The translations under genes and the position numbers were made by a program. The notes beneath the pieces were generated by a model. The model was not told the origin of the DNA and did no database searches. It saw only the letters and a program-made list of their open reading frames with translations. DNA of 11,417 nucleotides from Sulfurimonadaceae bacterium (GTDB lineage: Bacteria > Campylobacterota > Campylobacteria > Campylobacterales > Sulfurimonadaceae): the NCBI GenBank assembly GCA_041571435.1, contig JBFFUI010000051.1, forward strand, positions 1 to 11,417, read 5' to 3'. Below are positions 5,515-10,563 of the stretch, one piece after another (position 1 is the first letter of the stretch; each line of letters opens with the position of its first letter).

Positions 5515-6234
5515 TTACTTTTTGATCTCTAACAGTTCGATATCAAACAGAAGCGTTGAGTTTGGTGCAATCGTCTGGCCTGCACCGCGTTCGCCATAGG
5601 CAAGGCTTGCCGGGATGAACAGCTGCCATTTGGCACCGACTTTCATATGTTGAAGCGCTTCTGTCCAGCCTGGGATAACACCGTTTACCGGGAAAGTTGC
5701 AGGTTGACCGCGCTGAACAGAACTGTCAAAGACCTGGCCATTGATCAATGTACCGGTATAGTGGGTGACAACGGTGTCGCTAGCTGTAGGTGTTGCACCG
5801 GTTCCCGTTTTGATAACTTTGTATTGAAGACCGCTTGGCAGGGTAACAACACCCTCTTTGGTTTTATTCTCAGCAAGGAACTTTTCACCTTCAGCTTTGT
5901 TTGTTTCAGCCAGTTTCAACATCTCTTGTTGTGCTTTTTCCTGAACCTTCTGTTGGAAAGCCATCTTGGCCTCTTGCATCTGCTGATCCGTCAGTTTCAG
6001 TTCGGTGCCGTTCATTGCATCGTTGAGACCTGCAATAAGGGCTTTGCTGTCAATACCATCTTTCGTCATCGCAAGCTGTGCGCCGATCTGTGCACCGATA
6101 GCATAACCGACCTTCTGCTCTTGTGTGGTCAGGTCAGGTGCCGCAGCTGTTTCAGCTTTTTTTTCTTCGTTACATCCGGCCATAGTCATTCCGACTAGAG
6201 CGATCGCGAGAGTGGAGAGATAGATTTTTTTCAT
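5515..6234 (-). CDS. FKBP-type peptidyl-prolyl isomerase, FkpA/Mip-like lipoprotein
   Basis: MKK + hydrophobic stretch + lipobox MAG-C, FKBP_N dimerisation domain (YAIG..IG), long linker helix, and catalytic domain (SGLQY, HYTGTLING.VFDSS, VIPGWTEAL, LAYG, LLFDIELL). Start ATG 6234. Confidence 0.93.
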   Translation of the reverse strand: MKKIYLSTLAIALVGMTMAGCNEEKKAETAAAPDLTTQEQKVGYAIGAQIGAQLAMTKDGIDSKALIAGLNDAMNGTELKLTDQQMQEAKMAFQQKVQEKAQQEMLKLAETNKAEGEKFLAENKTKEGVVTLPSGLQYKVIKTGTGATPTASDTVVTHYTGTLINGQVFDSSVQRGQPATFPVNGVIPGWTEALQHMKVGAKWQLFIPASLAYGERGAGQTIAPNSTLLFDIELLEIKK

Positions 6235-6327
6235 GGAGTTCTTCTTTCGTTTAAATTTTAATGCTGAGAAATATAACGAAAAATAATTAATGAAAGTAAA
6301 TGAGAGCGGATTTGCCCTCAAATGTGA

Positions 6328-6645
6328 TTATTCTGAGATATACGAGCAGCAGTAGTCTGTCGGTGTCTTGATGACAAGGTCGAATGAGCTGTTGGCAGGA
6401 ACCTCAAAAGTGCAGGGTGCTTTCATAGCTTTAAAGCTCTCTTCGCCGGGAAGCTTCAGGTCAAATTCGCCGGCCATGATCTCCATTACCTCATATTCGT
6501 CGGTACCGAATGTGTATTCACCCGGCATCATAAAGCCCAGTGTCTTGCGGCTGCCGTCGTCAAACTTGATAGTACGGCTTGATACTTTGCCGTCAAAATA
6601 GATGTTGGCCTTTTTGACGACAGTCACATTGTTGAATTCACTCAT
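6328..6645 (-). CDS. ppnP: Pyrimidine/purine nucleoside phosphorylase (DUF1255/YaiE)
   Basis: [37 protein letters not shown] and DYCCSY motifs; SD AAGGA. Confidence 0.93.
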
Positions 6646-6913: not shown

Positions 6914-7768
6914 TTATCCCTGCTTTTTATAGATACCTGTCTCAGTGACTTCGATCTCGCCTGCATCGATCAGTGTTGTCAATGCGCGTTTATAGTTCTT
7001 TTTACTCAACCCGAAGACCGTATTGATCAGCTCAGCATCGCTTTTGTAGTTATAAGGCAGTGAGCCGTTGTTCTCCTCCAACAGCTGAAGGATCTTATCT
7101 GTAGCGATATCCGTTTTTGCGGCGGTACCTATAGGCTGTAGCGAGATGTCAAAGTTGCCGTCTTTGCGTATCTGTTTGACAAAGCCTTTTTTAGTGTCGC
7201 CGACGGCGATCTCTTCAAAGATCTCATTAGTAAAGAGCATGCCGGAGTATTTGTTGTCCACAATGACTTTGAAACCCAGCGGTGTTTTGGCGATGACCAG
7301 CAGCTTTACCGGTCTGTTTTTATAGTAACCCTCTTCAACTTCATGTGAGAGAAATTGTTTGATCTTTTCAACACCTAAAAGACGTTCGCTCTGTTCATCT
7401 TTAACAATCCGAAGGATGCGTTTGTCACCGATTCTAAAGGGTGTTTTTTGACGGTTCTTGGGAACAAAAAGATCCTTTGGCAGCCCCCAGTTGACAAAGG
7501 CGCCAAATTCAGCGATATCGACAACTTCGAAAAAGCCGAATTCGTCTACCATAGCTTTTGGTGTGTCGGTTGTTGCGACAAGACGGTCTTCGCTGTCAGT
7601 GTATACAAAGACCTCGATCTCCTGGTCAACAGTCATAGTATCAGTGACATATTGTCCCGGAAGAAGCAGGTCTTCTTCATCTTGTGCCATCAGGTAGATA
7701 CCCGGTTCGGTAAACCGGTCTATTCGTAGGGTGTTTATCTTCCCTAACTCTATTTTTTCATTAATCAT
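6914..7768 (-). CDS. cvfB: CvfB/YitL-family S1-domain RNA-binding protein
   Basis: LG.INTL, VFVYTDSEDRLVAT, FGAFVNWGLPKDLFVP, TPLGF and a C-terminal winged helix (FGLSKKNYKRAL..L). Confidence 0.9.
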   Translation of the reverse strand: MINEKIELGKINTLRIDRFTEPGIYLMAQDEEDLLLPGQYVTDTMTVDQEIEVFVYTDSEDRLVATTDTPKAMVDEFGFFEVVDIAEFGAFVNWGLPKDLFVPKNRQKTPFRIGDKRILRIVKDEQSERLLGVEKIKQFLSHEVEEGYYKNRPVKLLVIAKTPLGFKVIVDNKYSGMLFTNEIFEEIAVGDTKKGFVKQIRKDGNFDISLQPIGTAAKTDIATDKILQLLEENNGSLPYNYKSDAELINTVFGLSKKNYKRALTTLIDAGEIEVTETGIYKKQG

Positions 7769-7774
7769 AGTTGA

Positions 7775-7780
7775 ATTATA
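7775..7780 (-). promoter_or_regulatory. -10 box of cvfB (probably leaderless mRNA)
   Basis: Perfect TATAAT 6 nt upstream of the ATG, with no SD. Confidence 0.6.
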
Positions 7781-7801
7781 GCGGATTTGTTCTGCTTGCA
7801 G

Positions 7802-7831
7802 TTGACAGAAAGAGTAAAATGTCTTTAAAAT
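7802..7831 (+). promoter_or_regulatory. Candidate distal sigma70 promoter of the alpha operon
   Basis: TTGACA-18 nt-TAAAAT. Confidence 0.5.
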
Positions 7832-7886
7832 GAGATAAAAGCTAGACTAATATTTGTTTTTAATAAAGCTTTTAAGGATTTTTTTG

Positions 7887-7902
7887 TAATATACGCGTCC
7901 AC
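7887..7902 (+). promoter_or_regulatory. Candidate proximal promoter of the alpha operon with GC-rich discriminator
   Basis: TAATAT followed by ACGCGTCCAC, downstream of T-tracts. The predicted start site falls at the 5' end of the leader stem. Confidence 0.6.
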
Positions 7903-8008
7903 TTTGCCGTTTTAAACAAAATGGTTGAGTATTTGTACCTATATATAGTATATGTTAGATACAAGTATTGGCAGGGTGCAAAACCGCTACTGCCTGAAAC
8001 GGTAAAGT
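7901..8008 (+). ncRNA. Structured 5' leader RNA of the rpmJ-rpsM-rpsK-rpsD-rpoA-rplQ operon (candidate ribosomal protein leader)
   Basis: A 14-bp closing stem 7901-7914/7995-8008 encloses a long hairpin 7928-7969 and the stem GGCAG/CTGCC (7970-7974/7990-7994), which is capped by GGT-GCAAA-ACC with a GCTA bulge. Confidence 0.65.
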
Positions 8009-8029
8009 AAACAAAATAAAGGGCTTACA

Positions 8030-8143
8030 ATGAAAGTACGCGCTTCAGTAAAGAAGATGTGTGACGATTGTAAAATCGTTAAACGCAAAGGGATTGTCAG
8101 AGTGATCTGCAAGAACCCGAAACATAAACAGAGACAAGGATAA
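8030..8143 (+). CDS. rpmJ: 50S ribosomal protein L36 (zinc-binding C+ type)
   Basis: [37 protein letters not shown]; below the ORF track size cut-off. Confidence 0.98.
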
Positions 8144-8145
8144 GC

Positions 8146-8508
8146 ATGGCACGTATTGCTGGTGTGGACTTACCTAAGAAAAAACGTGTAGAGTATGGTC
8201 TAACATACATCTACGGTGTTGGTCTTTACGCTTCTCGTCAGATTCTTGACGCGACAGGTATCGACTATAATAAACGTGTTCATGAGCTTAACGAAGCTGA
8301 TGTAGCTGCTATTACTGCAGAGATCCGTGAAAACCACATGGTTGAAGGTGACCTTCGTAAGAAAGTTGCAATGGACATTAAAGCATTGATGGACCTAGGT
8401 TCTTACCGTGGTCTTCGTCACCGTCGTGGTCTTCCATGTCGTGGCCAAAAAACTAAGACAAACGCGCGTACTCGCAAGGGTAAACGTAAGACTGTCGGCG
8501 CAGCGTAA
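8146..8508 (+). CDS. rpsM: 30S ribosomal protein S13
   Basis: [10 protein letters not shown]...[27 protein letters not shown]. Confidence 0.99.
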
Positions 8509-8519
8509 GGAATTAGAGT

Positions 8520-8912
8520 ATGGCAAAAAGAAAAGCAACTCGTAAAAAAGTAGTAAAAAAGAATATTGCACGCGGTATCGCACATATCGCTGCATCATTC
8601 AACAATACACTTGTAACGATTACGGATGAGATGGGTAACATGATCGCATGGAGCTCAGCAGGTAGTCTAGGTTTCAAAGGCTCTAAAAAATCTACACCGT
8701 TTGCAGCGCAAGCAGCAGTAGAAGATGCAGTAGCTAAAGCGCAAGTACATGGTATCAAAGAACTTGGTATCAAAGTACAAGGTCCTGGTTCAGGCCGTGA
8801 AACAGCAGTTAAAGCTGTAGGTGGAATCGAAGGTATCCGTGTTACATTTATGAAAGATGTTACACCACTACCACACAACGGTTGTCGCGCACCTAAGCGT
8901 CGTAGAGTTTAA
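8520..8912 (+). CDS. rpsK: 30S ribosomal protein S11
   Basis: [33 protein letters not shown] and [18 protein letters not shown] motifs. Confidence 0.99.
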
Positions 8913-9570: not shown

Positions 9571-10563
9571 ATGAAAAAAATCAAAACATCTCCGCTTCTT
9601 CCACAAGAGTTTGTGGTTGAGCAAATTAGCGAAAATGAAGCAAATATCATTGCATTCCCGTTTGAGACGGGTTATGCGGTGTCACTTGCACACCCATTAC
9701 GCCGCTTTTTGCTTAGCAGCTCTGTAGGGTACGCTCCAGTAGCAATTAAAATCGAAGGCGCTAAGCACGAGTTTGACTCTGTGCGCGGTATGCTTGAAGA
9801 TATCTCTGACTTTATTATCAACCTTAAAGGTATTCGCTTTAAACTTAAAGACGATGCCAAAGAGGCTGAGATCACATACAGCTTTGCTGGTCCATGTGAG
9901 ATCAAAGGTTCTGACCTTAACAATGATGAAGTTGAGATTGTTACTCCGGACGCGTTCCTTGCAACTCTTAACGATGATGCAACGCTGAATTTTACAATCA
10001 AAATTTTCCAGGGTATCGGTTATGTGCCTAGTGAAGACATTCGTGAAGAGCTGGATGAGGGTTACATCGCATTAGATGCTTTCTTCACTCCGGTTCGTAA
10101 AGCAACTTATGCTATCCAGAATGTTCTTGTCGAAGACAACCCGAACTTTGAAAAAGTTGTACTTAACATTGTGACTGATGGTCAAATCTCTCCATTAGAC
10201 GCATTCCGTAATGCGTTGGAAGTTATGCACGCTCAATTGAATGTGTTTAGCAGCGAGATCAGCATTCAAGCTCCGGCAACTATCGAGCGTGTCGAAGAGT
10301 CTCCAGAGCTGAAAAAATTGACTGCTCGTATTGATGATCTTGGTTTGAGTGCTCGTTCATTCAACTGTCTTGATCGTTCAAATATCAAATATATCGGCGA
10401 AATCGTATTGATGAGCCAAAACGATCTTAAGAACGTTAAAAACCTAGGTAAAAAATCTTATGAAGAGATCCTTGAGAAATTGGCTGAAACCGGTTTCTCT
10501 GTAGGTGAAAACTTGTCAGATGACCTTGTTAGCGCACTTAAGAAAAAAATCGAAGCTGAATAA
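9571..10563 (+). CDS. rpoA: DNA-directed RNA polymerase alpha subunit
   Basis: [28 protein letters not shown] and the alpha-[12 protein letters not shown]...VKNLGKKS. Confidence 0.99.

Follow-up and report, generated by a model that had tools for sequence, protein, structure and literature searches.

Among the described leaders for ribosomal protein S4 (gene rpsD), that of Firmicutes heads a monocistronic rpsD. It is an S4 autoregulatory leader, due to Grundy and Henkin, and it is the source of the idea that such RNAs may imitate ribosomal RNA (rRNA), via a GUAA element (PMC7247131). In Escherichia coli, S4 represses the alpha operon through a pseudoknot, which is thought to be a translational repression (PMC3616713), and four further predicted S4 leaders head rpsD-containing operons in Clostridia, Fusobacteriales, Bacteroidia and Flavobacteria (PMC7247131). 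Here, we describe a structured RNA in front of rpmJ in a Sulfurimonadaceae bacterium (order Campylobacterales), found in a contig of 11,417 nucleotides (nt; JBFFUI010000051.1, assembly GCA_041571435.1), and this whole stretch is referred to as the window. Positions 7899-8029 are the 5' untranslated region (UTR), or leader, of the rpmJ-rpsM-rpsK-rpsD-rpoA-rplQ messenger RNA (mRNA). A first interpretation of this DNA, made from its letters alone and here called the sequence-only reading, had proposed that S4 binds the leader because it mimics helix 18 of 16S rRNA.

The S4 leaders predicted by Eckert and Weinberg (2020) are, like the present one, conserved structures that comparative genomics located before gene sets containing rpsD, with a ligand assigned by precedent, and they are lineage-restricted with mutually unrelated folds, as here. 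However, they precede rpsM or rpsD, while the present leader precedes rpmJ (PMC7247131). The E. coli alpha leader spans the rpsM start and has neither a sequence nor a structure match to the present leader, which is located before rpmJ and is a three-way junction, in Sulfurimonadaceae without a pseudoknot. A likeness to the E. coli system is that the form found in sister families also has a pseudoknot beside the ribosome binding site (PMC3616713). The S15 leaders that imitate a 16S three-way junction show a likeness of principle, i.e., a three-way junction and a conserved G-U pair in the role of a protein recognition element (PMC7247131), but they differ in operon and protein, and rpsO is not in the present operon.

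The leader had been put forward as a new candidate, and no known family in Rfam 15 matched it. There is no gathering-level match in the whole window, and tRNA is the only family matched in 12 loci from Sulfurimonadaceae and 16 from other families. A permissive scan of positions 7700-8200 gave three sub-threshold matches only; Alpha_RBS (RF00140) reaches 16.8 bits against a gathering threshold of 38 (E 0.15) at 8120-8178 (+), a stretch with the end of rpmJ and the start of rpsM, of which it aligns only the conserved rpsM coding part. The double pseudoknot over the rpsM start that is typical of RF00140 was not found there, and the gap of 2 nt between rpmJ and rpsM leaves no room for a leader. 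The consulted text of PMC7247131 lists no S4 leader for Campylobacterota, and it contains 0 occurrences of "Epsilonproteobacteria" and "Campylobacter". Full-text searches, with the supplements of PMC7247131 and PMC11109978 outside their scope, returned no description of an rpmJ or alpha-operon leader in Campylobacterota. The leader is genuine and uncatalogued.

A three-way junction in front of rpmJ

The region 7901-8008 folds into three stems, and this fold is both the minimum free energy and the centroid structure (RNAfold, -37.6 kcal/mol). Dinucleotide shuffles of the same region reach -21.4 +/- 3.2 kcal/mol (z -5.0) and none of the 200 is as stable; the fold is real and beyond chance. The reverse strand folds less stably (-25.0 kcal/mol, z -2.9), which agrees with the earlier claim, made from the G-U pairs, that the RNA is encoded on the + strand. 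The three stems are unchanged when 7899-8060 is folded, and this longer fold adds only one weak hairpin, a local one that extends from about 8019 to the first part of rpmJ and includes the G's of the Shine-Dalgarno sequence. The parts of the leader are:

7901-7914 (+), stem P1, 5' strand, which pairs with 7995-8008; 12 of the 13 modelled P1 pairs show compensatory changes
7915-7927 (+), junction J1/2, which ends in the invariant G7927 (79/79 leaders)
7928-7969 (+), stem P2, with a conserved base helix 7928-7937/7960-7969 that includes the U7932-G7965 wobble, and a variable apex 7938-7959
7970-7994 (+), hairpin P3, GGCAG-GGT-GCAAA-ACC-GCTA-CTGCC, which contains the proposed helix-18 look-alike
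7995-8008 (+), stem P1, 3' strand, with the terminal AAAGU at 8004-8008, 21 nt before the rpmJ AUG
8009-8029 (+), A-rich linker with the Shine-Dalgarno sequence AAGGG at 8019-8023, mostly unpaired in the fold of 7899-8060

P1 consists of 14 pairs, two of which are G-U (7906-8003 and 7913-7996). The leader is thus a three-way junction in which P1 clamps the 5' end to a segment ending 21 nt before the AUG, P2 forms a long hairpin and P3 abuts P2. All letters and coordinates that the sequence-only reading gave for P1, P2 and P3 are found in the sequence.

Conservation and covariation in Sulfurimonadaceae

The region was found by BLASTN in 18 of 41 relatives, and a covariance model (R1) was built from an alignment (A1) of 17 of these 18. 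R1 matches 115 of 151 Sulfurimonadaceae genomes, 101 of the 115 genomes of good quality, and 20 of the 23 genera. In an order-wide sample of Campylobacterales it matches 11/151 genomes, and 8 of the 10 from Sulfurimonadaceae. The 79 loci that were fetched gave 82 matches, of which 76 are true, with the start of L36 (rpmJ) 0-156 nt beyond the end of the model. The six others are spurious: L028, L072, two in L029 (one of them on the reverse strand), and reverse-strand echoes in L071 and L033. Five family genomes from four genera that R1 misses were examined, and all five have a recognisable, diverged leader before rpmJ. Apart from second R1 matches in G226 and G252, which sit on other contigs of these assemblies, the leader is present in one copy per genome.

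In an alignment of 79 leaders fitted to the model (A3), whose sequences are related and not independent, 92.4% of the cells are paired, compared with 32-53% when the 3' partners are slid. Compensatory changes are seen in 22 of the 30 pairs, and on each of the five measures used, all 500 shuffles fall short. The sequence-only reading had suggested looking for conservation and covariation in relatives, and both are found. That this is a real, conserved and structured RNA of the 5' UTR is, in our view, practically certain.

Some positions are the same in 79/79 leaders: the C at model position 1, a U of P1, G7927, A7928 (the first A of P2), two U of the P2 5' strand, AA..UU of the P2 3' strand and the GG with which P3 begins. 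GARURUUU is present in 75/79 leaders, AAGUAUUGG in 68/79, and the U7932-G7965 wobble is kept in 72/79. The apex of P2 varies in both length and sequence across the family. P3 is a hairpin of 12-44 nt in 77/79 leaders; these 77 hairpins have 67 different sequences, and only the closing GG/CC is kept. The conserved parts are the base of P2 and the P2/P3 junction, which together read UGARURUUU...AAGUAUUGG-hairpin-CCU, and most of the conserved letters lie in helices and not in a junction pocket. As judged from this pattern, the functional core would comprise the P2 base and the P2/P3 boundary (G7927, A7928, U7932-G7965 and AAGUAUUGG...CCU), with the interior of P3 unconserved.

The same leaders bear on a coding explanation. 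A 29-codon open reading frame (ORF), from the ATG at 7921 to the TAA at 8008-8010 (+), runs across P2 and P3 and terminates where P1 ends, and it could be a translated leader peptide that regulates the operon. This ORF is present in the window and in several genomes of the same genus. However, an ATG ORF crosses the conserved block in only 31/79 leaders, with the phases split 16/16/4; the length changes in P2 and P3 are not multiples of three, and the compensatory pair changes fit an RNA structure, not coding. The leader peptide was rejected on the small number of leaders and the mixed phases, and we regard it as extremely unlikely.

The likeness to helix 18

The sequence-only reading took P3 (7970-7994) for a copy of the 16S helix-18 base in circularly permuted order, with AGGGUGCAA and ACC-GCUA-CU recognised by S4. 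The letters and the bulge topology are indeed present in the window, with AGGGTGCAA at 7973-7981 and ACCGCTACT at 7983-7991, and the arrangement GGGUG...ACCGCU(A/U)CU is kept in 9 of the 13 leaders of the same genus. Some S4 leaders of other phyla also imitate rRNA, via the GUAA element (PMC7247131). However, the letters are not conserved. AGGGTGCAA (in RNA letters AGGGUGCAA) is found in only 2/79 leaders, both among the 13 of the same genus, and ACCGCTACT in only 6/79. P3 covaries freely and has 67 distinct sequences among 77 hairpins; even within the genus its loop changes from GCAA to GAAA, GAUA, UGAA and others. The parts that are conserved in the family lie elsewhere, at the P2 base and the junction.

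The rRNA of the lineage appears to differ as well. The window's own genome is without an assembled 16S, but in G003, a complete genome of the same genus, helix 18 reads CTCCGGCTAACTCC...GGAGGGAGCAAGC (CTCC...GGAGGGAGCAAGC), which agrees with the proposed mimic in 8 of 9 letters, with a pair flipped. As the same-genus 16S has AGGGAGCAA paired to CUCC, the 9-mer seems to match the E. coli letters given in the sequence-only reading and not the rRNA of this lineage. From these comparisons we conclude that the 9-mer likeness is probably a coincidence in one genus, not beyond chance given the relatives, and that a helix-18 mimic is a very unlikely explanation. The case is a caution, as a striking rRNA likeness of nine letters in one genome was gone once relatives were compared.

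Neither does the leader contain the Firmicutes element: no conserved GUAA was seen, as the 5' strand of P2 reads UUUGUA in many leaders and UUUAUA, UUUCUA or UUUUUA in others. Mimicry of rRNA by the conserved core was also considered, by eye against the same-genus 16S, and dropped, since the matches seen there are about 6 nt long, e.g., UGAAUA near the strand leading into helix 18, and are expected by chance.

Leaders of the same architecture in other families of Campylobacterales

The neighbourhood of rpsM was fetched from 40 genomes of the order, and the region before rpmJ was inspected. A leader of the same architecture lies behind infA and a promoter-like box in 18 loci that represent 11 other families. 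From 5' to 3' it comprises P1, with a pairing of the AAACUG/CAGUUU type, a junction that ends in GAAG, then a long P2, RUUGG, the P3 hairpin and CCU, and finally the P1 3' strand. When the P2-P3 core of these 18 leaders is aligned by plain MAFFT (A5) and the structure is written by hand, 93.9% of the cells are paired, compared with 40-63% when slid, and 16 of the 21 pairs are compensatory.

A model made from A5 (R3), and thus without the window's family Sulfurimonadaceae (f1), matches 85 of 151 Campylobacterales genomes. The matched families are f3, f4 (10/10), f5, f6 (10/10), f10 (5/10), f11 (10/10), f12 (10/10), f13, f17 (9/9), f18, f19 (8/9), f20 (2/3), f21, f23 (9/9) and f24 (4/4), and no R3 match was obtained in f8 (0/10), f16 (0/10) and f26 (0/9). 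Families f14 and f25 are not counted as carriers, as their single weak R3 matches are spurious. Weak second matches in G071, G148, G072 and G095 lie in or beside unrelated ORFs, and match L188 in G069 is spurious or unrelated. With the window's family included, the leader is found in 16 of the 26 families sampled, of which the family of Campylobacter is probably one. Strong matches in the fetched loci of other families precede rpmJ without exception (43/43), 36 of them within 60 nt and 7 with longer spacers.

Two family peculiarities were seen among these leaders. In f11, rpmJ starts with GTG (L224, L230, L233, L199, L210); the first impression that this family lacks rpmJ behind the leader was dropped for that reason. 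The f6 leaders (L198, L204) have an extra 5' hairpin before P1.

A segment shortly before the Shine-Dalgarno sequence is engaged in both groups, but in different ways. In the sister families the apical loop of P2 is complementary to a segment whose end lies 20-24 nt upstream of the start codon; this applies to 22 of the 34 leaders for which L36 was found by the first pattern. The loops and their targets covary in classes: CCACUG/CAGUGG, GGCACU/AGUGCC, GCACC/GGUGC, UGCACCGG/UCGGUGCA and GGGAA/UUCCC. For 36 leaders we took the longest run of strict Watson-Crick pairs that a loop can form with the target window of its own leader; the mean is 5.7 (minimum 4), compared with 3.6 for target windows of other classes. 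None of 2000 random loop-target pairings reaches the observed sum, although relatedness of the sequences inflates this test. The pairing was tested by script, as the MAFFT alignments A4 and A7 lose the register of the pseudoknot 3' strand; shuffling of single loops was uninformative, the loops being too short.

In Sulfurimonadaceae, the P2 apex has no such complement. Here, the 5'-terminal CCACUUU pairs with AAAGU(G/A), located at 8004-8008 in the window, and forms the outer part of P1, and the end of the P1 3' strand occupies the position that the pseudoknot 3' strand has in other families. The two forms thus capture the same pre-Shine-Dalgarno segment, which, as predicted from these complementarities, would be held by a P2-loop pseudoknot in other families and by the 5' end in Sulfurimonadaceae. 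The earlier statement that the leader is unlike the E. coli alpha pseudoknot is right for Sulfurimonadaceae, but it does not extend to the sister families, where a pseudoknot lies beside the ribosome binding site.

Both forms have the same place and topology, a G-A entry into P2 and a UUGG...CCU boundary, and ACAAG(G/U)AUUGG is common to the window and some other families. Models of one form also find the other to some extent. R3 gives weak, full-length and correctly placed matches in three of the eight f1 loci searched (L178 with 18.9 bits, L026 with 18.1 and L025 with 15.8), while it misses the window's own copy at E <= 1, and in G162 the f23 leader is recognised by R2, a model of f1 leaders alone. 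We therefore consider the Sulfurimonadaceae leader as probably the family form of an order-wide rpmJ leader, a homology that is well supported by these comparisons but not proven.

In both groups, some loci have an insert between the leader and the Shine-Dalgarno sequence. In Sulfurimonadaceae these are L030, L032, L037, L040, L042-L047, L050, L051, L053-L055, L024 and L077, and in other families L194, L195, L196, L205, L215, L228 and L241. The insert is structured-looking and has no Rfam match; its distribution is patchy even in the window's genus, and the window itself lacks it. Its copies in this genus consist of a hairpin, GCUUUAGUGCC and a second hairpin.

Promoter, transcription start and RNA evidence

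Upstream of the leader, the family leaders share a promoter, with these parts in the window:

7860-7866 (+), upstream promoter box TTAATAA, at least 80% kept in the consensus of the 50 nt before 79 family leaders
7887-7892 (+), -10 box TAATAT, preceded by TG at 7885-7886; TAnnnT is found at a fixed distance in 78/79 family leaders
7899-7901 (+), predicted transcription start CCR (R is A7901), placed from the conserved -10 box and the 5' edge of the covarying P1

The -10 box was not among the sites listed by a simple sigma-70 scan. A stronger-looking, near-consensus sigma-70 promoter-like site is seen about 60 nt further upstream, at 7802-7831 (+), with TTGACA, 18 nt and TAAAAT (11/12 positions); it was rejected as the conserved promoter since it is not kept in same-genus genomes, and it may be an extra or a chance promoter.

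Four metatranscriptome runs from two studies were available as assembled contigs. Contig X12 covers 7910-8396 and thereby joins the leader to rpmJ and rpsM, X19 covers 7926-8213, and X7 covers 7918-8034 and 8017-8646. In X7 and X12, both from one study, a sequencing adapter is found immediately before 7910. No RNA run covers 7354-7893, a gap that we do not count as evidence for the start site.

A mapped start is available in Campylobacter jejuni NCTC 11168, where differential RNA sequencing (dRNA-seq) assigned a primary start at 1522215 (+) to Cj1591 (L36), with a 132-nt 5' UTR and a step height of 805 (PMC3656092). This start is shared by two further C. jejuni strains, a secondary start lies 5 nt upstream, and a weaker primary start is located 50 nt before Cj1594 (S4) (PMC3656092). 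Aligned by eye, the 51-nt C. jejuni promoter string shares about 40 of its 51 positions with L192, a locus of f12, and the predicted L192 leader, from the C that follows GTG in GTG-CTTTTGC to the ATG, is also 132 nt long. By this homology, seen by eye, the mapped rpmJ start would sit at the equivalent 5' edge of the leader. For comparison, the mean 5' UTR in C. jejuni is 30.6 nt, and no riboswitch other than that for thiamine pyrophosphate (TPP) was found in its 5' UTRs (PMC3847290). The main text of PMC3656092, as consulted, has 0 occurrences of "ribosomal protein", "riboswitch", "cis-regulatory", "long 5" and "Rfam".

The proximity of P1 to the predicted start raises the question of whether the leader is simply a protein-independent 5' structure that acts without feedback, either because P1 buries the 5' end against 5'-end-dependent decay of an abundant mRNA or because it sets a constant level of translation. 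It is in line with such a role that P1 begins 0-2 nt from the predicted start, that the Shine-Dalgarno sequence is outside the leader fold and that inserts between the two are tolerated. However, a mere stabiliser needs neither invariant unpaired or junction nucleotides (G7927, and AAGUAUUGG in 68/79 leaders) nor a conserved U-G wobble (72/79). Nor does it need a three-way junction across 16/26 families or a covarying pseudoknot at one fixed pre-Shine-Dalgarno segment. We find this explanation rather unlikely.

Operon and genomic setting

The genes behind the leader are:

8030-8143 (+), rpmJ (L36), Pfam PF00444 (E 2e-21), with the ATG at 8030
8146-8508 (+), rpsM (S13), Pfam PF00416, 2 nt past rpmJ
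8520-8912 (+), rpsK (S11), Pfam PF00411
8924-9550 (+), rpsD (S4), Pfam PF00163 and PF01479, the favoured candidate ligand
9571-10563 (+), rpoA, Pfam PF01000, PF03118 and PF01193
10573-10923 (+), rplQ (L17), Pfam PF01196

From rpmJ to rplQ the intergenic gaps are 2, 11, 11, 20 and 9 nt. On the 5' side of rpmJ, a gene for a CvfB-like S1/winged-helix protein (Pfam; 6914-7768, -) is divergent, which means that the operon begins at rpmJ and that 7769-8029 is its promoter and leader region. The claim of the sequence-only reading that a structured leader begins at the predicted transcription start and heads an rpsD-containing operon is thus supported.

Two further divergent genes lie upstream, at 6328-6645 (-) and 5515-6321 (-), and together with 6914-7768 they encode a CvfB-like protein, a Ppnp nucleoside phosphorylase and an FKBP-type isomerase. 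infA is not adjacent to rpmJ in the window, while it is in most other Campylobacterales families. Closely related records are titled Sulfurimonadaceae, Sulfuricurvum and Sulfurimonas.

No second leader was seen before rpsD, and the rpsK-rpsD spacers (8-174 nt) are not conserved. Many families, and also the window, have a spacer of 8-11 nt, and in some families it is 74-174 nt long. The long spacers (L199 and L210 of f11, L202 of f15, L209 and L211 of f23) have stable predicted folds that are unconserved between families.

Possible function

The leader has a covarying structure and a location in the 5' UTR before ribosomal protein genes, in 76/76 loci of Sulfurimonadaceae and 43/43 of other families. 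A structure that occurs nowhere but ahead of ribosomal protein genes is, as a rule, taken to be a ribosomal-protein leader (PMC7247131; PMC11109978). A single copy that is always before the first cistron, with a conserved junction core and variable peripheral stems, has the hallmarks of a ribosomal leader that binds a protein. We suggest that it is probably a feedback leader for one of the ribosomal proteins encoded in the operon, whichever of them is the ligand.

The same features can be read differently, as a riboswitch or a sensor of some other trans-acting factor (small molecule, ion, non-ribosomal protein or small RNA). A three-way junction with a conserved core is a typical aptamer feature, and the leader matches no known protein-binding family. 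However, it is found once per genome and only before rpmJ in the 76 and 43 loci, with the examined weak second matches spurious, and its conserved letters are mostly helical and not in a junction pocket. Furthermore, no terminator-like site was found in 7500-8300, i.e., none after the leader, and the precedent rule for structures confined to ribosomal protein genes speaks for a ribosomal protein (PMC7247131; PMC11109978). A sensor of this kind is in our judgement distinctly improbable. By weight, we list the rivals of a feedback leader as the protein-independent stabiliser, the other-ligand sensor, the leader peptide and the helix-18 mimic.

For a feedback leader, S4 is the first candidate because of the E. 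coli case and the precedent rule used by Eckert and Weinberg (PMC3616713; PMC7247131). We propose S4 tentatively, at clearly less than an even chance overall, and spread the remaining weight over L36, S13, S11 and L17. One of these operon-encoded proteins, when in excess of free rRNA, would bind the conserved core. Its binding would lock the fold beside the ribosome binding site and lower the translation of rpmJ, and the repression could then spread to the downstream genes through the tightly packed cistrons.

Several observations weigh against this feedback model. The Shine-Dalgarno sequence and the AUG of rpmJ are outside the leader fold. In 18/76 family loci and 7/43 loci of other families, extra nucleotides (70-480 over both groups) separate the leader from the Shine-Dalgarno sequence, so steric blocking of the ribosome cannot be the whole mechanism in general. 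Whether or not the leader is present, the gene content of the operon is identical in 27/27 loci examined from other families. Gene context can therefore not separate S4 from L36, S13, S11 and L17, and it is from gene context alone that we infer the ligand. A comparison of the conserved core by eye with the same-genus 16S turned up short matches of about 6 nt, but no convincing resemblance to rRNA. Finally, the RNA contigs have their 5' ends at 7910-7926 and not at 7901, and a true 5' end at 7910 would remove half of P1; assembled contigs do not define a start site, and some DNA may be present in the RNA libraries. Ends a few bases inside the true start are usual for such libraries, and the covariation of the outer part of P1 indicates that the RNA includes 7901-7909.

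Significance

The chances seem to us evenly balanced for a more complete proposal, namely that this is an uncatalogued, order-wide class of Campylobacterales RNA with two interchangeable topologies and the first ribosomal-protein feedback element known in the phylum, with S4 or L36 as the ligand. Ribosomal-protein feedback leaders are known mainly from Gammaproteobacteria and Firmicutes, and none is listed for Campylobacterota in the consulted parts of PMC7247131 and PMC3616713 or in Rfam 15. If true, the proposal would add another independent RNA solution for the control of alpha-type operons. With S4 as the ligand, it would be a further independent invention of an S4 operator. With L36, it would concern a protein for which, to the best of our knowledge, no autoregulation is known.

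The two forms would also be a natural experiment in RNA evolution, in which a 5'-end clamp has taken the place of a pseudoknot while the target segment stayed the same. The element lends itself to direct tests, as sister copies exist in what is probably the Campylobacter family, where the 132-nt 5' UTR of rpmJ has been mapped but goes undiscussed in the consulted main text of PMC3656092.

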